DNA of 61,054 nucleotides, the filler included, from Dugesia japonica (Eukaryota): NCBI GenBank assembly GCA_001938525.1. It is 5 parts of 5 records of this genome, joined end to end, with 100 filler letters (N's around TTAATTAATTAA, not from the genome) between each part and the next. Parts side by side here need not be neighbours in the genome. Positions count along the whole stretch, not along the records: positions 24,375 to 33,959 come from MQRL01393249.1; 4 more parts are not named here. One strand, 5' to 3'. Each line of letters opens with the position of its first letter. The stretch's first letter is position 1. A program made the translations under genes and the position numbers. Below are positions 1,041 to 57,589 of this stretch, one piece after another. The notes below the pieces were generated by a model. That model did not search any database. It worked only from the letters and a program-made list of their open reading frames with translations, and was not told where the DNA came from.

Positions 1041-3100
1041 CTAAACCAGAAAATTTTTCTACTTGGGAGGGGTTATTGGGGCAATGGGAAATTTTACTAA
1101 ATTTAGGAGAAACTTACTAAAATAAGAGTAAGTATACAATTTATCTGGAGAGTAGAATGGAGCAAGGATCAACAAATAAGAGTTATTCAATACAATGAAG
1201 CAAATTGGAAAACGTATCGAGACGAGAACGAACGTCTAAAGTAAAACCATGTGATCAAGAAATTGGAGGTAATCTTGGTAAATTGCGTGTGCCTTTACAC
1301 AAACATCTATATTCTGTTTGCGACAGAAGATTGGAATACGCAGATATGACCAAAAGATACAATTCAGAAAAAGAAACAATCCCAAATCAAAAAGAACAAG
1401 AAGATTTAGAAAATATTAGCTCTCAAGAGGTAAAAGATGATTTTACAAAATGTTCGACTAAAAGAGAGATAACGATTGGATCTGGAATAAGACACGTAAA
1501 TAAGTTGCTGGTTCCGTTTAGATTGAACAAATGAAGGGAACATATACAAAAAAGACGGATCAGTGACTTACACAACCGTACTCATTACTGGATACAGCAA
1601 AGTATCCAAATAAAAAGTGAGATAGTTGATACAAAAAGATTGATAATTAAAGATCAATAGAGGTAGAAACGAGATATTGATGAGATTAAAACAAAAATAA
1701 AAAAGAGTCAGTGAAAGATAAATATATTAGAAGCAACAATCAAGCGTATTAATGCGTCACGGATGCAAGATTAAGAACATATTTATCACGAGAGAACCCA
1801 ACAGTTGATAAAAGATGAGGTAAGAGCAGAAACTGAATTTCGGAAATGCAAAAAGGTTCACGAGGAAAGTCTGATAGCAATCCAGAATTTAGAAAAACAG
1901 GTCGAAGCAGAAAACAAGTGACTCAAAGAAACACCCATTACAGTAGTGTTATCTCACGGCAGAATAATGTCAATTAATCAATTTACATCTGAATAGCAAC
2001 TCCAAGACCATTGGAACCACAGATAAATTATTTAGCACAGAAAGCTCAAAAACAACAAATACAACCAAAACAGAACAAAATCCAGGCTTCGCCTTATTCG
2101 GAATCTGAGGAAGATCTTTTCTGGGGTGAATAAATTCAACCTTTTTTGTACAGATGTCAAAACAATACTAAATATAATATCTATTGATAATTTTCTTTGC
2201 GATTCGATGCCGCTTCTCAGTGTTATTATATTGAAATGTTAGAAACATTTTAAGAAACCCCCAACTGTCCCGTATTAAATTTCAGTAGTTCTAGGTTATA
2301 TTTCTCGTCAACAGAAGGTTCCAGAAACCGATATCCTACAGCCCTATGTTGCATCTTACCTTCTCTCGGCAGTTCTAAGCTGAACCCAATTGACAGTCTA
2401 TTAAATTATGGTAGTTTTTAGCTAGACTCAACCAATGGTCGATTCTCGTCTCTACGACAGAAGGCTCCAGAATCTAAATATTTATTGTAATTATTATGAT
2501 GAAAAGAGAAAATTATAATAAAAGTAAAAATTAAGACTTTGGGCAAAAAAAGAGTTAAAGACAATTGAGGAATTAAATTGTTGAATAGTACCTGAGGCAG
2601 TAATTTAAATGAAGGGGAGGCAGACTAATTAATACTAAGATTCACAATATATAATGTCTTTATAATTTACATTACTCGTTCTGGGANTACTATTAAACAT
2701 AGATTTTAAGGTCACAATAATTTCATTCTGATCAATTAGTTTAAATTCAAATTTAGAACCACGTCGAATATGTGACATAACATCCCATTGAGTGACTGAA
2801 GATTTAATTGATTTTTTGATTAAAGAAATTCTCTAGGTCTTTTCTGGAAGGGGATCCATTAATCTTCGTGAGTTGGTAGTTTCAAATACTAACTTTTGAG
2901 AATGTTTAAATGTTTCTGTACGGAAAATTCTAATTTGCCTCTTTGCTACTTCAATCGATTTGTATCGTTTAATATAATAAGAAAATAATATTCTTTTTTA
3001 ACTTTTATTTTTAAAATCAAATAAGTCATATCCAAATAATATTAATTGATTGAAATAACACCCATTGAAATCGACTCATGCCAACGGTAAATAAGTTGAT

Positions 3101-3600
3101 TTATACCAGTAATAAAGAATTCCCGTGTCCTGGATTCAATAAATTTTCAAGGACATTTTCAATAGTAAAATGATTTTTAAACATTTTGCCTTGCAAGAAG
3201 AGCCCAAAATGCTTATAAAAATAAAAATTGGTAGGTGAGAGGTGTGGCATTTTTGGTGGATGCTGCAAAATTTCGTACCTCAATACTTGCAGCTTTTTTG
3301 TGGCCGAGCATTGTAATGGAGAATAGTAGGACCTATCCTGATGATAGAATGTCGAACGAAAGTTATCCATTTCTTGGGGCTTCTTATCAACTCCCAGGAA
3401 ATATTTATCTTCTGTACCTTTTTCCAAGGAATCATAATGCCTCCAAGATACTACCAATCAGCGTGTTTAATCTTTTAGCAACGTTTTGGAAAGTTTTCGG
3501 TGGTCCAAACACTGTGCTGAGCGTTTGTAGCTGTCATATAAAAACCATTTTTTATCGCAGTTCACGATGCGATTGAGAAATGAATCATTCATGATCAACA
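3101..3600 (-). pseudogene. Degenerate mariner transposase, C-terminal half
   Basis: YEILQHPPKMPHLSPTNFYFYKH...FLQGKMF is a decayed HPPYSPDLAPSD motif; frameshifted. Confidence 0.85.
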
Positions 3601-4933: not shown

Positions 4934-7174
4934 TCAGCGCCTCATGTCGGTCATTCGTCGCCTAGGTTTAGCTAAATTGCTGTTTGTAAGTAGTTTAGCT
5001 TTAGGAATGGCTGAAAGAAAAAAACAAATGATTAAAAACAATTTAAATGAAAACAAATTAAAATTTGGTCACCATTTAAACTTTCTTCAGTGTTTTTCTT
5101 CAATCTTTCTGATATTTCTTTCAAACGATAATCTTGAGCGATCTGATTTCTTATATAGGCTTCTCGCCATGTTTCACCGTCACGTCTGTTTGCTGATTTG
5201 TGATTTTTTTTGAAAAGTTTTTCCCAGAAAAATTCGGTTTTTCTCTGGATTTTCTGAGAAAAACGGAAAAAATTAATTTCGATTAAAATTTTCCTGTTTT
5301 TATTAAAAATTTTAGTTAATTAATTTCATTCGGCTGATTTTATGCAGATTTTCCTAATTTATCAAAGAAAAAACCTTCATTTTATTACATAATAAAAATG
5401 TTAAATNNNNNNNNNNNNNNNNNNNNNNNNNNNNNNNNNNNNNNNNNNNTATTTTATAATCAAATAATTACCTTGCTTTCCCCATCAAAAGCTTTCAATT
5501 TCTCAAAATTAAATTGAGCGATTTCAGTTTCTAAAACTCCGTTTATCGTTCTGAGATTTTCTTCAACTGTATCATGTTTTACTATATTACTTTTTGGAGT
5601 CCATATTTTTCGTTCTGATGAGTATTTTGATGTACAATCGATATCTTCTTTAATTTCATAGTTGATATTATTTTCTTTCTTTTGTAGAATTAAATCTGTT
5701 CGATTATAAACTGATTGTTCGTCCATATCAGAATTCGATAATGAAGAATTTAATGCAGGTAAATCCGATAGTTCTGTTGGAGCGAAATGCGCTGGACTTT
5801 TCTTCAATTGTATATGTGGTTTTTTACTTTCAATATTATGAAAGTTCTCTGATTTTCTCTTTTTTCCTTGATTTTCAGCAGGTTTCGGCAAAGCACTGTC
5901 TTTAAGAAACGTTTCAAATGGCGTTACATTCTGCTTTATATCGGGTTTTCTTGATTTATTTTTATGCTGTTGGTCTGAATTTGAAAAGATTTTTACATTA
6001 GATGGTGGTTTTAATTCCGATGATTTGTCAACTGGGAATTTTTTATTGTCGATACTTATTTGATCACTTTTGATTGGCCTTTTGCTATCATCTTGAAAAA
6101 TATGTTTATCAGATTTTAACAAAAGATCACCTTTTATTTCATTTCTCACTTTATCAACCCTCCTTTTGTTATTTTTATTACTATTTTCATTAATTGGCAT
6201 TAGAAAATCTATTGTATCCATTTTTGAAGATTTCTTTCTACTTTCTTCGAGGCGTTGAAAGTGTGCCTCGTCACTATCTAAATCAGAATCATCACTTTCT
6301 TGTTTCATTTGCTTGTGAGTATATTTAGTAGAACTATCTGTTTTTTTCTGCACAACACTATGATTATATTCCTCGGAATTTTCATCATCGTACCGAACTT
6401 TTGAATTAATCTTATCTTCATGTTTTCTATCAGATTTTTTAGATGATTTTAGATTTTCGGCAAATTCATCACATTCATCAGAATCGATATCAACACTAGA
6501 AAAATCTGAATTGTCATTATTATTTCTATTTAATTTGATATGATTCATTTTACTGCTTTCTGAAGTTTTATTATGCAGCTGAAATTTTTTATTTATATTT
6601 TCATCAATGTCAGAATTATGATTTTCAAATTCTTTCCTATTATGATTTATTGGGTTTTCATTTTCACTTAGAGAGTCACTAGATGTTTGAATATCTGAAG
6701 CATGATCATTCTTTAATTTTTTATAATCACTATTTTTAGATTTATTTCTGTAAGCATATTCAGATTCACTTTCAGAAGAACTACGAGTTTGTTGAACCGG
6801 TTTATTTTCTGTATATTTTACTGATTTACTTGGTTTTACAACATCATGTTTATTTTTTTTCTCATTATCCTGAATCATTTCTGTCCACTCCTGGACTATT
6901 TTATTAGCTAATAAACCAGGTTTCCCTGGTAGTTTTGAACATTTTTTAACTGCTCTACCTATTCTTGACTCCTTCAAAACGTCAAGTGTCACACCAAGTT
7001 CTCGTATAGCTTTAAGTGTTCTATATTTCTGAATAATAATAATATTTTATAAAGGATTTTAAATTTGTAAAATGTAATTATTAAACTAATGTTAACTATT
7101 ACTTTATCCACTGATATTTCTTCTGAATTCAACTTATCAGAGAACTTTTGAAGAATCGTAATTAAATTACTCAT
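4934..7174 (-). CDS. ELOA: Elongin A-like transcription elongation factor (spliced)
   Basis: Exon 7174-7103 and exon 7028-5472 (74-nt GT-AG intron) give a TFIIS-N domain (VTLDVLKESRIGRAVKK...KIVQEW) and a long charged linker. Exon ~5254-5070 encodes FWEKLFKKNH...GETWREAYIR...RLKEISERLK (Elongin A domain). Last exon ~5011-4934. An exon may be hidden in the N-run at 5407-5449. Confidence 0.8.
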
Positions 7175-26439: not shown

Positions 26440-26730
26440 TGAGATGGGGCAGTCTTAATACTTTTCATGGCGAGTCTCTATATTTTTCATGGTATTGGCA
26501 ATCTTGATATTTATGCATGATATGGGCAGTCTCTATATTTTGCAAAGGATGGAACAGACTTAATATTTTGCAGTAAATGGGTCAGTCTTGATATTTTTTT
26601 AAGAGATTGAACAGTCTTAATTGAAACATTATTGTTTATTTTTCTTTATATTTTATTTAAGATAGTCAGTTTTGATATTATTAGAAGATATTTGGCATTC
26701 TTGATATTTTGCAAGGGATGGGGTCATAAG
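26440..26730. repeat. ~30-bp tandem array 1 (GGGCAGTCTTGATATTTT...)
   Basis: About 9 degenerate units. Confidence 0.75.
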
Positions 26731-27049
26731 CACTTGATTTTCAGTGTATGTGTGTTGCATCTGAGTAGCCCTGAGTTGCATGCGTATTGCCATTATTTAA
26801 AAAATTCAAAATGGCGGCCATGTTGAGTTTTAAAAATTTCTTTTTGGTGAGAAATTTGAAAGAATTATAAAAAGTTCTCAGGTGCGTGATTTTAAGTGAA
26901 TATGTGTTGCAGCTGATTTGAATCTGAGTTGCATACCTATTGTATTTATTTTTTAAAAATCAATAAAAATTCCCTGGCAAAGGGGGGAGTCTTTGTGATA
27001 TTCACATGATAAAATATATCTATCAAAAAACTTATAAGATTATAAAAAC

Positions 27050-27340
27050 AAACCTTTTTTGAAAAAACATATAGCTAGGTAATTTTCTAAAAATTCAAGC
27101 AATTTGCTATTAAAATCATAGTAAGCATGCAATTTTTCTATAAAAAACATATTAGTGGAGCAATTTTTAATGTTAAATCTCAGTAGCGATGCAAGTTTTA
27201 ATAAAAAATCTCATTAGTGATGCAATTTTTAATCAAAAATCTTATTAGCGATGCGAGTTTTAATAAAAAATCTCATTAGCAAGGCAATGTTTCTATAAAA
27301 AACATATTAGCGTTGCCAATTTTCTAAAAAAACAAATAAG
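27050..27340. repeat. ~30-bp tandem array 2 (AAAAA(C/T)(A/C)T(A/C)TTAGCGATGCAATTTT)
   Basis: About 9 degenerate units. Confidence 0.75.
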
Positions 27341-27469
27341 CTCAGAACATCTATTTACAAAATGATAAAAACAGACAATTTTTCATAAAAATCATAAATT
27401 CATGGAACCTTTCCATATATAACTAATAAGTCTATATAAAAACTTATAAGGAAATATTTTTATGATTGT

Positions 27470-28530
27470 ATAGGGTGAATGAGTGTATTATTTACATAGT
27501 AACCGTGTAATATATGGTTTTTGAGTATAATATTTGCATTGTTACCTTGTATTATTTACATAGTAACCCTGTATTATAGTTTTTATGAGTATAAGTTTTA
27601 TGACTGTATAAGGTTTATAGGTGTGTGGAACATTTCCATATATAACTTAAATTTACTGTATAAATACCTTATAAGTGAATATTTTTATGAATGTTTAGTG
27701 TTTATGAGTATACTAATTGCATAGTTAGCTTGTATTATTTACATAGCAACCGTGTATTATTTACATAGTTTAATGAGTTTAAAGGTTTTATGAGAATATT
27801 TATTTGAATAGTTACCTTGTATTATTTACATAGTAACCGTGTATTAAAGGGTTTATGAGTGTATTATTTGCATAGTAAATGTGCAATATAAGGCTTATGA
27901 GGGTATTATTTGCATAGTTACCTTGCTTTATTTACCTTATAAGCTATATTAGAGTGACAATTTGTCCTAAATATCACTAAATATTACTCTAAAAATTACC
28001 TTAAACGCATATATAAAACTTATAAGTAAATTTGTTATGACTATATAGGGTTTATGAGTGTATTATTTACATAGTTAACTTACATTATCTACAAAATAAA
28101 AGTGTAATATAAGGTTTTCAGAGTATTATTTACCTAATTACTGAGTAATATAGTGTTTTCGAGTCTGTGAACTTTTCATAAATATATAACTTAAAATTAA
28201 TGTATAAAGTAATTTATATAGTAACCGTGTAATATAGGGTTTATTATTTACATAGTACCTTATATTATTTACATAACAACTGTATAATATAAGACTTATA
28301 AGGGAATTATTTACATATTAAACGTGTAATAAGGCTTATTCAGTTATTTGTACATAGTAACCATGTATTATAGGATTTATGAGTGTAATATTTGTATATT
28401 TACATTGTATTATTTACTTATCAACTATGTAATAAAGGTTTTATGGTTGTGTTATTTTTATAACAACCATGTATTATTCCCATATCAACTGTGCAATATA
28501 AGATCTATGGGGGTATTTTTTACATAGAAT
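27470..28530. repeat. Tandem array 3 (GTATTATTTACATAGTAACCGTGTAATAT...)
   Basis: Many ~20/40-bp units over about 1 kb. Confidence 0.85.
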
Positions 28531-28662
28531 AATTTGATCATCGTTTCATTATCTAGGTTTTCTTTAATTAATTAATAATAAATTACATTTGATATATTTG
28601 TTTTAACAAATCAATTAAATTAAATCCATCAAAACGCCAATGTTCCTCTTAAATCATCAACT

Positions 28663-29110
28663 ATGATTACCAATATTTATTACAGAGGTGAAGTGCCACA
28701 AGAAGTAATAAAGAAAATTAACTTTCCTACCATGTCAATTTAAAGTCAAAAGTGATAAGTTTACAATTATTTACTTCACATCAGGTAAATATAGAATAAT
28801 GGGTTGTAAGAAACCATTATTTGATTTGGTGATTTGAACCCCCTATTATATAAAAATTTTACAATTACAGTCACTAACAATTTTCGTAAATATTGGAATT
28901 TCAATAAATCTGTATAAATTAGCAAGAATAGTCAACTGTTGGTTTGAACCAGAGTTATTTCCTGCTCTAAGACTTGTAAAATATAATCATTTATGTGTAA
29001 ATGTGTTCTCAACAGGAAAACTAGTAATACTAGTGCTTAAAAATTTGTATTTTGAGGGATATGTGAATAACATTACTTCAGATTTATTCAATTTGATTGA
29101 TAAAATTTAG
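28663..29110 (+). pseudogene. Divergent intronless TATA-binding-protein-like gene (one frameshift, one in-frame stop)
   Basis: Repeat 1: FTIIYFTSGKYRIMGCK (cf. TALIFSSGKMVCTGAK). Repeat 2: INLYKLA...WFEPELFPALRL...VNVFSTGKLVIL (cf. YEPELFPGL...LIFVSGKVVL). Confidence 0.85.
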
Positions 29111-29268
29111 AAAATTCGCAACACGGATGCAAGACTTTTAAAATTTAAGAACAAAAAATATCAATTTAAATTTAGATATTTAAATTTCAAATAATTAATA
29201 TATTACGTTGTGGTTTTTTATTATGCCTATATACAATTCATTTCATTATTATTTCTTGTAATTTAAAA

Positions 29269-29521
29269 ATGAATTCATCAAATACAGGAAAAATTGAGAA
29301 AATGTAAGAGGATTTTAGTAAGACAGGTTTGATTTATATTAATGTTTTTTAATTTTATTAATAAATTTAATTTAGGAATGCTTAAAGACATATTGGAGAA
29401 ACGAGGATTATTAGACGAAGAATGTGAACAGAGGCTCCCGGGCTCTATTGTCAATCAGTGCATGGCATCGGAATTTTGCACACCTAACTGTATGGGTTGT
29501 GCAAAATTTACCTTATGTTAG
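29269..29521 (+). pseudogene. Small two-exon Cys-rich orphan gene, disrupted
   Basis: ATG at 29269; 49-nt GT-AG intron 29327-29375 keeps phase; exon 2 MLKDILEKRGLLDEECEQRLPGSIVNQCMASEFCTPNCMGCAKF; TAA in exon 1. Confidence 0.4.
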
Positions 29522-29734
29522 CCATGGAGAACTATCTGGACTAACTTAATCATTATAATGACTATTTTTGATATTATTAATAAAAAAAATAATGTATTAT
29601 TATTTAGTCTTTGTTTTATTTATTTAGTTTTTTTTAGTTTTTATAAAATAATGTATTTTAAATAAAATGAACAAGACTTTTTTCAAAAATATTTATTTTA
29701 TTTAAAACAAATAACACGAAGTAAACATTAAGTA

Positions 29735-30163
29735 AATAAATTTAGATCTTCTTTGAAATGCTCTTGAATTTACATATAACTCCTATCGAATTATTTGATT
29801 TCTTAAAGCATTTAATCTCCACTTGAATCATCCATTGACTGTTGTCTTTATAATTTTTTCATCACGTTCTTTAAAGGCTTTATAGATATCCTCATTGACT
29901 TCAATTTTACGGCTTAATCTGGCGAACATAGCTTCCAGTATATTTCTATCCTTCTCATGAATTCCCTATAGAAGCAGACTAAATTTGGATCTTTTTATTG
30001 AAACTGGTTTCTAAAATAAAATAATAATTTATAATGAAATAAAAAATAATTACTTCGAAGTCATATATAATCGGATTCTTCAAAAAGAACAACTTGTAAT
30101 TAAGGTAATTAGTTTCACAGGGATTGTTCGCACGTTTTCCTTAGTGAATGGGTTTTCTTGCAT
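29735..30163 (-). pseudogene. Small two-exon orphan gene, disrupted
   Basis: MQENPFTKENVRTIP..., short AT-rich intron ~30010-30053, ...ILEAMFARLSRKIEVNEDIYKAFKERDE; stops present. Confidence 0.35.
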
Positions 30164-30556
30164 TTTGAGTAGTAAAAATGATTAATTTTATCTAAACCTT
30201 TGCTTATAAACTAGTTGGGATATATACATACTCGTTATTTGTTAGTTTTTATTGGTTAATATTTGTTAAAATCGATATGATTTGTTAATATTTCTATTAA
30301 TTGTTGCGATTAGTTGATGTTTGCTAAAATTTATATGATTCGATAATATTTGTTTAAACAGTTATGATTGGTTACAATGTTTTTATAAATAGGACTTGTT
30401 TTTAAAAATAAATTCAACTTTACAATATGTCTTTTAATGCTTTTGCAAATTATTTGGAAACCCTTTCCATAGAGAAAATAGAATTGAAACTGATACTAAC
30501 CACGACAATAGAAAATATCATTGCAACCATCAATATCAATGAACAACAAACAGGAA

Positions 30557-30688
30557 TTTTATAATTACAATTATTGTGAGAATAATTGTTGGACTTAACC
30601 ATTGATCGGATTTGAGATTTCATTAAAATAAGATAAGGCTTCGATCAAAGAAAGCTTTGATCGAAGCCTTATCTTATTTTAATGAAAT
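30557..30688 (+). mobile_element. Asymmetric fold-back element, copy 2, with 12-bp flanking direct repeat
   Basis: Perfect 34-bp arms 30617-30650 / 30655-30688 with loop AAAG; AACAAACAGGAA at 30545-30556 and 30689-30700. Confidence 0.85.
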
Positions 30689-32483
30689 AACAAACAGGAA
30701 ATTCAAGATGAAAAGATGGAAGATGCATATCCTGTCTAGGAAGACGATGGTGTTTGCTTTGAATATTAGGATAAAAAATATGAACATTATTATATGAAAC
30801 GTTTAATTTATTATTATTTTATTTAATTTTTATTTTAGAAGTAGCTCAACAGATATTGAATAACAGGTTTCCAGAATATTATTTCTATACAAATCTGTAT
30901 ACTCCATAGTCCCGCTGAACTCGAGGAAAATAAGTAAATAAACTAACGATGTGTAGCAAACATTTGCGAATTCTATGTTACCCTTTATACAAGTGTAGTG
31001 TAAAATGAGAAAGCTTAAGAACAATGTCAAAGTTAAAACTATTAAATAAATTATCTAACATCAAAAAGCCTGGAAAAAGCGTGTAATCCCAACACTAACT
31101 CTGATTGAGGTCAAACTATGAATTCCAATGAAATTGGAAACAAAATATGATACTAATACAAAATGAATTGACCCTTCCGTCAGTCATATTTGTAAAAAAA
31201 TTAATTATGTTTAATCAATTAACTAATACAGATTTATCACTCTTCAACTCATCTAACAAGTCGGTTTTTGTGTGTGTATTTTAAGACTATTCTGATATAT
31301 TTCATTCTAATCTATCAATATTTATTTCTACTTCTTATTCATCTCAAGAAATCAATAAAAAAATTGCATGGCTTAATATTTGCAAAAATCTAAATAAATG
31401 CTTTTGTGAAAATTACCTTTCAAATTTTTTCATATCATTAATTAACTGTGTTCGAATTAAATAACCCGAAGTATAATCTATAATATTGACATCTGAATCA
31501 CCCTAATTACCTTATGGAATGCAACTAAATCAATTTTTATTATCGTTTCATTTGTCATCAATTAAAATTAAATTTGACATAGTTTAATAAATTATAAGAT
31601 TTTCGATGAATTCTAATCTAATTTCAATTTCATGTTACTAATTTAAACCCGGAAAAAATATAAAAATGTCAATTAAAAATATGAAATAAGAATTCCGAAC
31701 CTTGGGAAGTTTTCAATGAATATAAAACTTGCTTTTATGTATTCTGTATGTGATTATTCAGAGTCTCTGTTTATCTTACTAACTGAGACCCAATAAAACC
31801 AGTACGCGTATGACACTAAGGACTCTGGAACAATTGGTCATTGAGTAGTCGATTAAATAGTGGAAGGATAGTGACGTACAAACAATGGAGATAAATAAAT
31901 TATTTTCACAACCAAGATTTATGATACTAATTGCTATCACTTTGCAATGGTTTCAAATTTTATATTTATTTTCTGTTCTGTTTATTTTAATGTTTTGAAA
32001 TATTCTGTCAAATGTTAGTAATTAGTACAATAAATAAAATTTACTTTGATTTGATCTGCTACGAAGAGGAATTTTAATTGGAAAATCGGTAAGCTGTAGT
32101 TGATTCAAAAGTTTTTATTTCTGTTTAAATCTATGAAAGCTATTCACAATTTGTCTGAAAACTCTTAAACTCAGAAGGGTTTTATATCGATTCCTTCCAC
32201 TTAAAGTCGTTATAAATATTATTAATTTTATACAAACCAATATTTAATTTCATAAAATATATCAAATAATTTAATTTTATAACTTTGTATTAAATAATTC
32301 TATCGAAAAATTTGTTTTAGTGTTTAAATGCTTAAAATATATATTTAGGAATTTAAGCCTTTTTTTAAATAATGGAATTATAAAATTATATTAAAATTAT
32401 AATAATAATAACAAAAAATATTATAAATTATTTACAAAAAAATGACGAATGTGACCATTGATAAATGGAACAAAATATAAAAA

Positions 32484-33799
32484 ATGATATTACAACGCAA
32501 ATTTACAATAAATTGTGATGTTAATGATAATTACAAATGTGGAATTTGCAAAAATGTCTTAATAAATGCACATCAAACTATTTGTGAATGCAATTTTTGT
32601 TATGAATGTATCAATCAATATATGGCTAATGGTGCTCTCAATTGTCCTAATAACGATGAAAAATGCAAATTGAAAAGTTTATCCAATATTACACCAAATC
32701 ATAAAATGAATAAATTAATTTTGAATCTAATGGTGCGATGTTCTAACAACATGTGCTCATATGAATGTCAATTAATAGAAATGGAAAATCATTTTAATTC
32801 ATGTTTAAACAAGTCTGTTAAATGTCCGTTTAATGATTTTAGTTGTGAACATGATGTGATCAATGATAAATTAAATTATCACAACACAATATTGATTGAT
32901 CTGGTTGAAAATTTGAGAAATGAAATGCGAGAATTGAAAGAGAAAATAGATGGGAATCGATTAGAAATTGAAATGTTGAAAGAGAATGATCGTATAAAAA
33001 ATGAAATAATGGAATCATTGAACGAAAAGTTCAAATTAATAAAAGTAAATAAAAATTTTATTGATTTAAAATTTTTATTTTGATTTAGCATGAAAATAAA
33101 GCTTTGGCACAACAAATAGAGATTGGTGAGGGGAATTTATGTACAAATTAGATGAGATCTATATTGAGATGAAGAGTAAACGCAAGAAAGAGGAATTATT
33201 GAAAGAATTTGACGAGAAATTCAAGATGGAAATGAATGCGAGATATTGTGATATGAAAGAAGTGATTAATGATGAAAATTCGATAATCAATGAGATTATT
33301 GATTCAGGAATGGAATGAGAAAATAGAGAAAATGAGAGAAGAGAATGAAAAATTAGATAATGAAAGATCAAATGAAATCGAAAAAATTAATAAATATTTG
33401 AATATGAGAGATGATGGAAGATTGGATTGGCAAATTGGTAAAATCAGTGAGATAAAATGGATGATGAGTGAATATTTCTATGACAAACAGAATCCATATG
33501 GAATGTATTTGGAAATGGAAAATATAAACAATGAATTGAATATTTGGTTGTGCATTTATTCTGGTGCATTTGATGATGATCTCAAATGGCCCTGTCAAGC
33601 TGATGTTGCAATTAATATTTCTGCAATGAATGATAATTGGGATATATCCAAAACAATAACAAAATCATGCTCAATAGCAAACCCAGAAAATATTTTGTCC
33701 AAATGTGAAGAACCAATCATATTTTCTCAATTTGATTGCACAGAATCAAATCTTAACAATATAAATTGCTCATTGGTTTGCATAGTAAAATTTAAATGA
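32484..33799 (+). pseudogene. TRAF-like gene (RING, TRAF zinc finger, coiled coil, MATH); apparently frameshifted
   Basis: CGICKNVLINAHQTICECNFCYEC...CP; C-terminal SEYFY...YGMYLEM...IYSGAFDDDLKWP (MATH); intron 33045-33088; in-frame stops at 33150-33290 while another frame is open there. Confidence 0.8.
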
Positions 33800-38939: not shown

Positions 38940-39660
38940 GTCACTGGTTGAAAAGGAGATGATGTGGTTACTGGAACAGGATTTTTGAATATTTCTTCAA
39001 ACTTAAACCAATTAAAACTGTAAAGAGAATCGTTAACAAAAAGTTCATTCTTCTGGTAATATAAAAATATTGTTCCATTAACCGCATTTCTTCCTTTTAA
39101 AACAGTGACAAAGTTTTATATAGAATTTACAGTATAAAAATGCTTTGTTCAAGAAATTATATATAATTATAATTATATATTATTTCGAGAACAACGCATT
39201 TTTCTACAGTAAACCTTATGTGAAATATATGTNGATTTTAATTCTGAGTTGATTAGTATGAAAATATTTTAAAAATAATATCAATTTAATTATAATTATA
39301 ATTTATAATTATTTTACAATTACAATTATTGCGAGAATAATTGTTGGACTTAACCATTGATCGTTTTATAGAATTCATTTAATATAAAAGCTTCGATCAT
39401 AATTTTTGTTTTTTTAAAGATATTTGATAACAATTTGATATTTCGACTTAGTCTTCTACATGAAATGACTTTTTAATTAATTACATATAATTATATATTA
39501 TTTCTTGAACGAAGCATTTTTATACTGTAAATCCTATCACTGGTTTAAAAGGAGGTAAAAAGGTTACTGGAACAAGATTTTTATATTACCAGAAGAATGA
39601 ACTTTCTGTTAATGATTCTCTTAACAGTTTTAACTGGTTTAAGTTTGAAGAAATTTGCAA
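38940..39660. repeat. Nested inverted repeat (~180-bp arms) enclosing fold-back element copy 3 (~39310-39440)
   Basis: ~38990-39170 is the reverse complement of ~39485-39655; family core at ~39330-39363. Confidence 0.75.
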
Positions 39661-54064: not shown

Positions 54065-55586
54065 CTAGATTTATCAAACCCGTCAAATGGACGGGTTACA
54101 TAAATTTAGTGTTGATAAATCTAAAAACCTGAATATTTTATAGTATAAATTAATATTGAATATTAGTAATTGTACTTTGAGGGCGGATTACTCAATTTCA
54201 ATAAAATTTCAACATGTCAAAACAGGCAAAAAAGGGAATTTTTGAGTGAAAAAGGGTCAAAAACAAACCTTTTAGACTTTTCATTAATTTGACAGGGAAA
54301 AATCAAAATAATCAAATTAAAATAAAATTCAAATTTTCGCATCAAAATGAAAATTCTGATTGAGAAGTAAATTTGAAAAATCTCAAAAATTACCCACCAC
54401 TTCACAGAAAATAGATGAATGGAATTTTTTAAAACTTTCATAAAATTAAAATAATAAAAAATATGATGCAACTTGATACCAATTTAAAAAATAAAATAAG
54501 AGAAATTATAAATAAAAATATAGTTGTTTATTCAGAATATTATTATTTAACTAAAAAACATAATGATTTCTTTACTAGTTGTTTTTCAGAATATTATCAA
54601 TATATTTACTCATTATTAGCTTCTATAAAAAAAATAATAGGATTAATTTATAAAGAAAAATTTGTACATTTAGGTTTTGTTATTAGGTAGATAGTGGCGC
54701 ATTGCCAGCATTGACTTTTCATTGAAGACCCCCTCGGAGAAAAAAAAGTTAAATAAATAAAAATAAGAAAAAATAAAATAAAATTAATATCATATTTAAA
54801 ATTTGGTATAAAAAATTCATAGATATTTAAAAANAAGCTTAGAAATAAAAAACAAAAAAAACTGGCATAAAAATTTAAGGGAAATTAAAATACTGGCATA
54901 AATTTTAAAAGAAAAATCTAAACTGGCATAAATTTAAAAGAAATTAAAAAACAGGCATAAAATATGAAAGAAAATTAAAAAACTGGCATAAAAACATAAA
55001 AGAAATTAAAAAACGGGCATAAAATTTAAAAGAAATTAAGCTTTTATAATATTTATTTAAAAACATATTAACTAGTTAATTTGATTAAAATATTATATGA
55101 TTATTAAAAATAAATGTTCAATGCATGGAACATTTTAACCAATCAAAATAAAACATAAATTCTAAATCTCATTTATTTTCTCATTCACAATTTTTATTTT
55201 GATGCAAAAATTTGAAATTTAATTTAATTGCATTATTTTGTTTTTTCCTACTCAAATTAATGAAAAGTCGATTTTTCGTTCGTTTTGGAGATTAAAAAAC
55301 TTTAAAAATTTCATTAAACCTAAAAAAAGTTTGGAAATTGGTGACATTAAAAGCCCGGTTTTAGACCTTTTTTCACTCAAAAAGCCCCTTTTTTGCCTGT
55401 TTTGACATGTTGAACTTTTATTGAAATCGAGGGATCCGCCCTCAAAGTACAATTAATAATATTAAGCATATATAAAAGGTGTAAACATCTGAATTTTTTT
55501 TTCAAATAACTTCAAATTACGAGTATTCGTATGTTATGTTCATCGTTTAAACAATACCTGTCAAATTGACGGGTTCACTATACTAG
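54065..55586. mobile_element. Two oppositely oriented Helitron-like 3' ends forming a large inverted repeat around a ~30-bp minisatellite
   Basis: Hairpin ACC(C/T)GTCAAAT(T/G)GACGGGT ~9 nt from CTAG|T at both ends; 54165-54270 is the reverse complement of 55355-55460; AAACTGGCATAAA repeats at 54855-55040. Confidence 0.7.
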
Positions 55587-55765
55587 TAGTTTTTGTTGTA
55601 AAAGACAGTTTGCCTTTATTATCTTTCTATAACTGGTGTATGAATATAGAAAAGATTGTTGGATAGGAAGATATATGTTGTATACAAGTGAAATTATATG
55701 TATATATGAGTCCCANNNNNNNNNNNNNNNNNNNNNNNNNNNNNNNNNNNNNNNNNNNNNNNNNN

Positions 55766-56576
55766 AAAGAAAAATCTAAACTGGCATAAATTTAAAAGAA
55801 ATTTAAAAACAGGCATAAAATTTAAAAGAAAATTAAAAACTGGCATAAAAAAGTTANNNNNNNNNNNNNNNNNNNNNNNNNNNNNNNNNNNATTAAGCTT
55901 TTTATAATATTTATTTAAAAACATATTAACTAGTTAATTTGATTAAAATATTATATGATTACTAAAATTAAATGTTCCATGCATGGAACATTTTAACCAA
56001 TCAAAATCAAACATAAATTCTAAATTTCATTTATTTTCTCATTCAAAATTTTTATTTTGATGCAAAAATTTGAAATTTAATTTAATTGCATTATTTTGTT
56101 TTTTCCTACTCAAATTAATGAAAATTCGATTTTTCGTTGGTTTTGGAGGCTAAAAAACTTTAAAAATTACATTAAACCTCAAAAAATTTGAAAAATTGGT
56201 GATATTAAAAGCCTGGTTTTGGACCTTTTTTCACTCAAAAAGCCCCTTTTTGTCCAGTTTTGACATGTTGAACTTTTATTGAAATCGAGGGATCCGCCCT
56301 CAAAGTACAATTAATAATTTTAAGCATATACAAAAGGTTTAAACATCTGAATTTTCTTTTCAAATAACTTCAAATTACGAGTATTCGTATGTTATGTTCA
56401 TCATTTTAACAATACCTGTCAAATTGACGGGTTCACTATACTAGTAGGTTTTGTTGTAAAAGACAAAGTTTGCCTTTATTATCTTTCGATAACTGGTGTA
56501 TGAATATAGACAAGATTGTTGGATAGGAAGATATATGTTGTATACAAGTGAAATTATATGTATATATGAGTCCCAC
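55766..56576 (+). repeat. Tandem near-duplicate of ~54910-55714, including the Helitron-like end (CTAG 56441-56444) and its flank
   Basis: Colinear with scattered substitutions; separated by an N gap. Confidence 0.85.
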
Positions 56577-57589
56577 ACATGTATGTGTTATAAAAATCAT
56601 GTAAAACTGATTAAACATGTCTGTTAAAATAATCAATTATGGTTAGTTTTATTTGGTGGTGTCGATGTAAATGNNNNNNNNNNNNNNNNNNNNNNNNNNN
56701 NNNNNNNCATTTCAATTTTATTCGATAATTGAAAATTTTTGTTTTCAAAAGTAAATATAATACATAGTGATACAAACAATTTTATCTCATATTGATTTAT
56801 AATTGCTTAAATGTAAGTGTATGTTTATTGCGAAGAGTTGTAAATAAAATTTATTTTATCATTGAATATTTGATATATAAAGACTTTTTGAGAAAAACAG
56901 AATACCACAGTTTATATTATTTGTTTATAACTGCTTACATACCTGAAATCAGTACAAACAATACTCCTTATAACAGTAGAAACATAAGGTATTGATTTTT
57001 GACCTAAAAGTAGTAAATAAGCAAACTCAGTTAAAAATGTTTAACCATTAATACAAAAAGATTTTTATTAATTAGCAACTCACTAATTGATAATATGAAA
57101 CCTAATGATCAAGTTATAAGCTGAAGTCTTATAAACTAATGACTGATATGTATTAAGTATAATTTGTAATTCAAGCGAGTATTATGAAATTTGGACCCAA
57201 ACCAAAGGAATGCGAGTCTGTACTCGAATTTAGAGTCAACGGCTCCATTTCGAAGATCTGGATTTTTGGGGACACCAGATTCCAATTCATTGCGGGGTTT
57301 TACCAGGTCAATGACCCTAGATTTAATTTTACATAAAGTTCGACCTCCTAGATTTAGTTATATAAGAAATTAACTGACCTAGGGTAAGACCGCAACATAT
57401 TATTAAGTAGCAAAATTTTTTTTTTTAAGTAATTGTAATTACGAGTGAAACGGACAAATAGATGAAAATATCTATGATAAAAATTGAATCAAAACAAAAC
57501 TCTATTTACAAACATCAAAATTATCAACACAGAATGTTAATTATAATCAATAATAATATTGACAATAATCCATGACAACAATCTCAACA

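Follow-up and report, generated by a model that had tools for sequence, protein, structure and literature searches.

The segment at positions 28663..29110 (plus strand) of the window, by which we mean the whole 61,054-nucleotide stretch of Dugesia japonica DNA that was analysed, is almost certainly a decayed gene for a TATA-box-binding protein (TBP) of the type carried by Maverick/Polinton elements. We moderately favour the reading that the intact form of this gene is a late-gene switch of the element: the protein is predicted to bind the octamer YATAAACR in front of packaging and putative capsid genes and to recruit host TFIIB and RNA polymerase II.

The gene is intronless and comprises about 150 codons, from an ATG at 28663 to a stop codon at 29108-29110. 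The closest intact relative aligned to it by tblastn in two segments: 28663-28728 in frame 1 (residues 1-22, 15/22 identical) and 28730-29107 in frame 2 (residues 26-150, 92/128 identical). The change of frame between the two segments marks a frameshift at ~28728..28730, and an in-frame TGA stop is found at 28835..28837 (codon X42 of the translated long frame), both on the plus strand. An earlier reading of the sequence alone had counted two disablements, and these are the two; besides them, a few positions that are otherwise near-invariant in the family are substituted, and the window copy is unable to make the full protein. The Pfam TBP family (PF00352) matched the long frame, with the stop written as X, at E=1.2e-10 (41.5 bits, cut-off 22.9); the stretch that passed is the C-lobe only. 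The sequence-only reading had nevertheless recognised both TBP repeats. The motifs that it quoted were found, and the N-lobe was confirmed because the AlphaFold2 model of an intact relative (P0002) aligns to TBP throughout. The described length of some 150 codons and the lack of an intron also agree with the relatives, which are single intronless ORFs of ~150 aa.

A homologue search yielded 27 proteins among 33 candidates, mostly of 144-163 aa, the best of which was 72% identical to the window protein. With a HMMER profile of 23 of these relatives, 53 representatives were found at E<=1e-30 and 391 at 1e-10; this set was not selected by the EPELFPAL pattern, with which 78 loci were fetched from a metagenome scan. 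The 1018 ORFs of these loci were clustered, and 67 loci were classed as type 1. Of the 67 type-1 loci, 34 contain at least one core Maverick gene, as do 19/21 of those that reach 4 kb, and 64 contain either a core gene or a shared accessory one. The gene sets include pPolB with an endonuclease VII region, an rve integrase with a chromodomain, an A32-like ATPase and a PLA2-like protein (all by Pfam), and adenain was identified with a PDB profile (E 6e-9). Core genes (pPolB, rve integrase, packaging ATPase, protease) were found in L007, L014, L048, L054 and other relatives. The capsid labels of the relatives' ORFs are partly based on what we take to be the Maverick layout: the putative capsid cluster c9 matched Capsid_N in 1/10 members (E 0.007), and a comparison of the putative capsids with PDB sequences gave no match, which leaves position and layout as the basis of these labels. 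Judged by their gene content, the carrier elements of the TBP family are Mavericks/Polintons. The proposal that the gene was cargo of a virus-like or mobile element with its own TBP thus stands in respect of the relatives, the present copy being dead; the neighbouring genes in the relatives point to a Maverick/Polinton and not to a helicase/Rep element or a giant virus.

In scans of viral contigs, one TBP locus and four protease loci were found, all of them distant, and scans with putative capsid or ATPase alignments gave nothing. Loci L080-L083 were considered as controls and rejected as too distant. A Maverick-like contig with a putative capsid and a protease (L067) holds two adjoining TBP-like ORFs at 2026-3582, one of them divergent (Pfam E 9e-7), the other canonical-like. 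The Maverick contigs L084-L088 lie inside bacterial metagenome-assembled genomes and are probably animal-derived contamination.

The AlphaFold2 model of P0002 (pLDDT 92.9) could be superimposed on TBP from end to end (VIA Z 13.1, rmsd 2.6 Å, 146 aligned), with a query TM of ~0.7-0.78 in Foldseek; by this model, the type-1 family keeps the two-lobe TBP saddle. Wedging phenylalanines are conserved at F41 (194/196 type-1 sequences), F101 (204/206) and F117 (202/204), and at the fourth position, the N-lobe equivalent of yeast F99, type-1 sequences have no Phe. Six residues of the DNA face are replaced, namely (yeast numbering, mapped through the plant TBP P0140) V122 by R47 (195/196), T124 by M49 (200/201), L205 by N115 (203/205), N159 by S/T72 (202/204), V161 by T/S74 (202/204) and V71 by N6 (146/180), which corresponds to 99% conservation at all six positions except the V71 equivalent (81%). 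The same six yeast residues are listed as DNA-contact positions for TBP and KSHV ORF24 in Table 1 of PMC12529657. The two N-lobe segments measure 38 and 22 residues versus 48 and 34 in plant TBP, and the shortened first repeat and linker of the sequence-only reading are thereby borne out. The 22-residue segment (34 in plant TBP) is the H2 region, in which the P0002 model has no helix of four or more residues; helix H2 is absent in the 150-aa forms, and longer forms of 160-175 aa keep more of the N-lobe. The N-terminal extension of cellular TBP is absent as well, the type-1 protein being a bare core, as had been noticed from the window gene.

In the accessible text of Ravarani et al. (2020, PMC7221094), the C-lobe glutamates C.L3.2/C.L3.4 are described as contacting TFIIB, and the basic patch of H2 as the site for TFIIA, Mot1/BTAF1, TAF1 and Brf1. 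Both TFIIB-contact glutamates are kept in 189/206 type-1 sequences, a retention that is partly pre-selected through the use of the EPELFPAL pattern to fetch loci, and both are present (E-x-E) in the window copy too. For other viral TBPs the same text gives a conservation of this pair of ~40%, mostly accompanied by a viral TFIIB. Pfam found no TFIIB family member among 82 chosen locus ORFs; these come from partial elements, and a divergent TFIIB could escape such a search.

Promoters were studied in 224 regions upstream of conserved genes in loci L001-L065 (191 after removal of near-duplicates); this set excludes cluster c2, ORFs in which over 45 codons precede the first Met, and starts at most 120 nt from a contig end. 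ATAAAC and TATAAAC were the top enriched words. The octamer YATAAACR was present ahead of 66/84 virion/packaging genes, compared with a mean of 1.6 and a maximum of 6 in 300 dinucleotide shuffles, the motif having been discovered and counted on the same set, in related loci and with counts that carry no phylogenetic correction. In antisense orientation it was found in none of these 84 regions. By gene, the octamer precedes 17/19 ATPase, 8/8 putative major capsid, 9/12 integrase, 8/13 putative minor capsid, 3/5 protease and 7/8 PLA2-like genes, 9/13 genes of cluster c3, 5/6 of c19 and also 6/10 of c6; it lies upstream of 0/48 TBP, 0/7 c11, 0/8 c7 and 1/8 c15 genes. A canonical TATA box followed by TCANT was present in 19/71 TBP/c11/c15/c7 regions versus 0/84 virion/packaging regions. 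In 21 representative loci, 106/133 YATAAACR sites are located 8-110 nt before an ORF start (14% at random), with a peak at 30-50 nt. Some sites overlap the coding end of the previous gene; there the codons ATA-AAC encode the site in 30/46 cases in ORF tails versus 12/94 elsewhere (p 5e-10) and, in another frame, YAT-AAA-C in 27/32 versus 9/36 (p 9e-7). On these codon counts the octamer is kept at the DNA level over the ends of previous genes, synonymous codons being constrained in two frames. Counts of 7-mers in single contigs recovered GTAAGAA in L074 (see below), and ATAAAC was not in the top ten for L007, L014, L048 and L054; YATAAACR is apparent only by position and not by single-contig word counts.

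Five further loci were selected by their ATPase. One of them (L084) has a type-1 TBP together with the motif (3 sense and 0 antisense sites). In the other four (L085-L088), which are partial, mostly GC-rich contigs with ends beyond which a TBP could lie, no TBP was seen and sense/antisense sites numbered 0/0, 1/1, 0/0 and 1/1. Locus L066 runs against a simple rule that links TBP type and motif: at 141-1857 it has a type-1-like TBP, yet YATAAATA precedes its PLA2-like and ATPase genes.

A second lineage of Maverick TBPs, termed type 2, is represented by locus L074 (2213-2728), which encodes a full-length TBP in which all four phenylalanines are retained and which clusters with canonical TBPs; a PC4-like gene adjoins it. 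YATAAACR is not found ahead of the core genes of L074, and CGTAAGAA occurs at 8 sites (0.5 expected), in the same orientation as the surrounding genes. Four small relatives of L074 (L071, L072, L075 and L076) have 1-2 CGTAAGAA sites each, so that the type-2 motif is based on one contig of 12.7 kb and four small close relatives. The type-2 family numbers 148 proteins. Among the 120 listed, V122 is N/Q in 111, T124 is N/Q in 116, N159 is T in 117 and V161 is S in 115. Proteins P0198-P0317 belong to this lineage, with the N/N/T/S DNA face, and are multi-copy in animal assemblies; one type-2 member, in a bivalve, is named 'TATA-box-binding protein-like 1'. In the one contrast at hand, type 1 versus L074, TBP type and motif change together.

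The late-gene switch would work as follows. Host TBP would first transcribe the TBP and SSB-like genes of the element from promoters with a canonical TATA box and TCANT. The element TBP would then bind YATAAACR ~30-50 nt upstream of the ATPase, integrase, protease and putative capsid starts, its acidic stirrup would dock host TFIIB, and the loss of helix H2 from the N-lobe would free it from Mot1/BTAF1, TAF1, TFIIA and Brf1. The type-1 protein would be expected to prefer YATAAACR over TATAAAAG or random AT-rich DNA. The terms 'early' and 'late' are assigned to the genes presumptively, from gene type. A broader proposal is put forward only tentatively, as it seems to us rather less than an even prospect: animal Mavericks/Polintons may transcribe their genes in two stages in the manner of a virus, using one stripped-down TBP, a promoter code of their own and host TFIIB, an arrangement that would have evolved at least twice, as type 1 with an R/M/N face and YATAAACR and as a separately captured type 2 with an N/N/T/S face and CGTAAGAA. 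If true, these systems would be the smallest viral late-transcription switches and natural altered-specificity TBPs, and they would be evidence of a true virion-producing cycle in Mavericks/Polintons.

The same observations were examined for other explanations. TATAAACA is near a canonical TATA box, and host TBP might therefore read TATAAACA. Host TBP could thus read YATAAACR as a TATA variant, and the element TBP could act as a decoy and dampen transcription, either by sequestering host TFIIB or by sitting on host or early TATA boxes. The C at position 7 is the main difference between the octamer and TATAAA-type boxes, and the TFIIB-contact glutamates, the best-kept partner surface of the protein, would be retained by a decoy too. 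However, 25/76 sites start with C instead of T and 20/76 end in G, the TBP genes of the element use a canonical TATA box with TCANT instead, the second TBP lineage is paired with a motif unlike TATA, and the DNA face is near-invariant, as expected for a surface that reads sequence; we regard the decoy as unlikely. Also rather improbable is a role of the element TBP as a DNA-bending factor in replication, integration or packaging, acting at the ends or arrays of the element, with another element protein reading the motif. The C-lobe E-x-E is kept, and its known role, in the part of PMC7221094 consulted for it, is solely contact with TFIIB/Brf; in addition, motif and TBP type switch together in the sole available contrast. 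Such a role would fit the SSB-like gene that adjoins TBP in 38/67 type-1 loci, the long tandem arrays beside the window copy and the occurrence of a TBP-like saddle in rolling-circle Rep proteins (VIA Z 7.2), and other conserved ORFs (c6, c13, a zinc finger) could read the motif. There is little likelihood that the motif is a host forkhead-type site unconnected with the element TBP: ATAAACA fits the forkhead-type consensus, which we take to be RYAAAYA, and an A follows ATAAAC in 54/76 sites, but the motif is strictly on the sense strand and peaks sharply at 30-50 nt ahead of the start, GTAAACA occurs in 0/84 virion/packaging upstream regions, a pyrimidine precedes ATAAAC in 69/76 sites, and 20/76 sites read ATAAACG.

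The window consists of AT-rich eukaryotic DNA that contains host-like genes as well as transposon debris. About 640 bp downstream of the TBP gene, at 29745..30163 on the minus strand, lies a decayed homologue of cluster c2, the usual neighbour of the TBP (HMM iE 7.3e-6 with the match at 29873-30043; tblastn E 1.5e-6). Cluster c2 is next to TBP in 20/67 type-1 loci. The top structure matches of a model of the intact c2 protein from L014 are SSBs of the Enc34/T7 gp2.5 type (VIA Z 8.4, 8.3 and 7.8; the best with rmsd 2.9 and 103 aligned), a match that is moderate but top-ranked, the Foldseek E being only 0.07; by this model c2 is predicted to be an ssDNA-binding protein with the corresponding OB fold. 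The c2 homologue is probably spliced, with a 43-nt GT-AG intron at 30053-30011. In loci L001-L064, clusters c2, c15, c20 and c29 are small ORFs that adjoin TBP and have a common C-terminal pattern, and c2 seems to be joined by splicing to c11, an exon upstream of it. Ahead of the SSB-like start, at 30177..30211 on the minus strand, a TATA-like TTATAAG is followed ~27 nt downstream by TCATT, a layout like that of the early promoters we infer for the relatives. Upstream of the TBP start a TGTTTTA element is present at 28599..28605 (plus strand), and TGTTTTA/TGTTTAA occurs upstream of 14/48 related TBP genes, as counted with no background test. YATAAACR is not found upstream of the window TBP start, nor is there a YATAAACR-led gene in the window fragment. 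A short Cys-rich ORF between the TBP and SSB-like genes (29378..29521, plus strand) gave no Pfam match and has no counterpart in the related loci; a small ORF at 30427 likewise gave no Pfam match.

Directly upstream of the TBP gene, degenerate tandem arrays with units of 28/56, 31/62 and 22/42/64 bp occupy 26451..28540, and these are possibly subterminal arrays of the element. They are not tied to Maverick ends, because blastn of the 24.3-31.5 kb part of the window against 79 loci gave no match outside the TBP gene. The array at 27437-28540 contains 9 of the 15 TTACATAG words and 3 of the 5 TTGCATAG words of the window, which presumably resemble bZIP-type half sites. A 22-nt motif is found on the plus strand at 24550-24571 and 25477-25498 (0.00 expected by chance) and possibly marks an end of the element. 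A third copy, with 3 mismatches, lies at 54684; tandem arrays of 30 bp and what looks like a duplication come after it, within 54684-56600, and this region may be another end of a repeat family that carries the 22-nt motif. No long inverted partner that would form a terminal inverted repeat was found in the window, the left side of the fragment abutting an assembly gap, and neither an element terminus nor a target-site duplication is evident around the fragment. In a six-frame search of the window with the cluster HMMs, only TBP and the SSB-like gene matched, and next to the TBP there is no gene for pPolB, integrase, ATPase or capsid; the copy is therefore a remnant, of one arm of a Maverick-type element. 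A decayed fragment like the N-terminal region of Maverick pPolB (47881-49402, a weak match with tblastn E 5.8e-5 to L014) is 18 kb off along the window and probably a separate remnant. Host-like ORFs in the window encode a TFIIS/Med26-domain protein (5460-7046), an intronless-looking TRAF-like RING/MATH gene (32481-33799) and a two-RING-like protein interrupted by gaps (52249-53514). The transposon debris, at 17159-18186, 43446-44688 and 49545-50579, includes Gypsy-like RT/RNase H, a Ulp1-like protease and a LINE-like RT, and some of its ORFs we take to be hAT-like.

In DNA runs of related organisms, 24380..30991 is a highly repeated stretch, as judged by contig cover, which collapses at 30992-31200 and is ~10 beyond 30992. 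Contigs matching 24380-31200 numbered 57,669-62,881 in three DNA runs and 3,106 in a fourth; they are mostly less than 95% alike, and part of the count stems from a hairpin repeat at 30556-30694. At position 29054, in the TBP gene, each of the three runs had 102-107 distinct contigs (counted to 128), a figure that is not a copy number. The TBP-bearing stretch belongs to a highly repeated family in related organisms. The hairpin repeat (30556..30694) is MITE-like, of very high copy and an unrelated insert, with three further copies in the window at 19497-19573, 39311-39399 and 45765-45844. RNA reads on 28300-30700 cover the TBP gene at a low level and in both orientations (in X13, 30/2051 reads reach 99+; X12 and X16 contributed 67 and 159 reads); they are mostly less than 95% alike, and therefore come from other copies and are no evidence of expression of the window copy.

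A quick ML tree, built from 80 rows, has the window protein nested among intact relatives (SH-aLRT 99), and ten canonical-like TBPs and two type-2 rows lie across a branch with a support of 91 (SH-aLRT, not starred); the rows comprise neither animal TBP nor TRF2. The phylogenetic check proposed earlier thus places the protein with intact relatives and apart from canonical TBPs, the comparison with TRF2 lying outside these rows. An origin as a retrocopy, since decayed, of the TBP or TRF2 of the host deserves practically no credence: the gene is intronless, broken and amid host genes and transposon debris, and a TBPL1 cluster was at rank 24 (0.93) in an Atlas feature search, but the protein is 72% identical to intact Maverick-type proteins versus 27/110 aligned positions (local) with plant TBP and nested in the Maverick clade of the quick tree, and the gene has a Maverick neighbour 640 bp away and is part of a high-copy family. 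A recent host retrocopy is ruled out. The judgement that the gene is too divergent for such an origin was correct, and the picture that would have overturned the cargo proposal, a decayed host copy with no intact multi-copy relatives, is contradicted by the intact relatives, the nested position and the repetition of the family in DNA runs of related organisms.

With a dedicated TBP and a promoter motif confined to packaging and putative virion genes, the possible existence of a regulated lytic programme in animal Mavericks/Polintons can be put to a direct test that needs a 150-aa protein and an 8-bp site. If natural TBPs combine re-coded DNA faces with matching motifs, they would show how TBP specificity can change, and they could serve as orthogonal promoter tools. 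Databases label type-2 members as host 'TATA-box-binding protein-like 1', and counts of TBP paralogues in invertebrates may therefore be inflated by transposon genes. Background on TBP structure is given in the accessible part of PMC10005294. In the accessible text of Starrett et al. (2021, PMC8502044; preprint 10.1101/697771), 'TBP' occurs once, in a figure legend for MELD viruses, and 'promoter' does not occur; the accessible supplement text of PMC8502044 gave 0 matches, and the available text of PMC10748475 has 0 occurrences of TATA, TBP and promoter. The full-text literature searched contains no description of a TBP family of Mavericks or of a promoter motif for it; figures, bioRxiv supplements, Repbase and subscription papers may hold more. 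What is known from the text at hand is a figure-legend label 'TBP'; a description of the family, its motif and mechanism was not found in print.

Compared with known systems, the type-1 protein resembles cellular TBP/TRF (PF00352; PDB 1cdw, 1ytb and 2z8u) in its two-lobe saddle (VIA Z 12-13, rmsd ~2.6 Å, ~147 aligned), and it keeps the equivalents of F116, F190, F207, N69, P191 and E186/E188 (yeast numbering). Unlike cellular TBP, it has a structural identity of 16-26%, no F99 equivalent and no N-terminal extension, the equivalents of V71, V122, T124, N159, V161 and L205 are replaced, and the helices of the N-lobe are trimmed. By sequence and model, it has the TBP fold but fails two canonical TBP features, the four phenylalanines and the H2 patch. 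With the TBP-like proteins of NCLDVs and poxviruses (PMC7221094, in the part accessible, and BFVD matches) it shares a divergent viral TBP with an altered N-lobe signature and a predicted escape from Mot1/BTAF1; those proteins mostly lose the C-lobe glutamates and have a viral TFIIB, whereas type 1 keeps both in 189/206. The relatives resemble Mavericks/Polintons and adintoviruses (Starrett et al. 2021, PMC8502044, accessible text) in having pPolB, rve integrase, FtsK/A32 ATPase, adenain, PLA2-like and putative capsid genes, whereas the window holds only a decayed fragment with accessory genes. The herpesvirus vTBPs (KSHV ORF24, EBV BcRF1) are likewise virus-encoded TBPs with kept phenylalanines and a polar DNA face, with structural genes behind an altered TATA box (the TATT late promoters of beta/gamma-herpesviruses, as far as the sources at hand describe them). 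According to the accessible parts of PMC12529657 and PMC6541308, KSHV ORF24 has polar residues at V122, T124, V161 and L205 (PMC12529657), is a protein of 752 aa with extra domains, a Pol II-binding N-terminus and a CTD among them, that binds Pol II directly within a six-protein complex, and is described in a section heading as incompatible with TFIIB (PMC12529657). Type-2 TBP matches ORF24 at V122 and T124. The type-1 protein differs from these vTBPs in being a bare 150-aa core with the TFIIB stirrup kept and YATAAACR as its motif; by analogy, it would probably be a minimal late-gene TBP that acts like ORF24/BcRF1 from outside that family, with host TFIIB.
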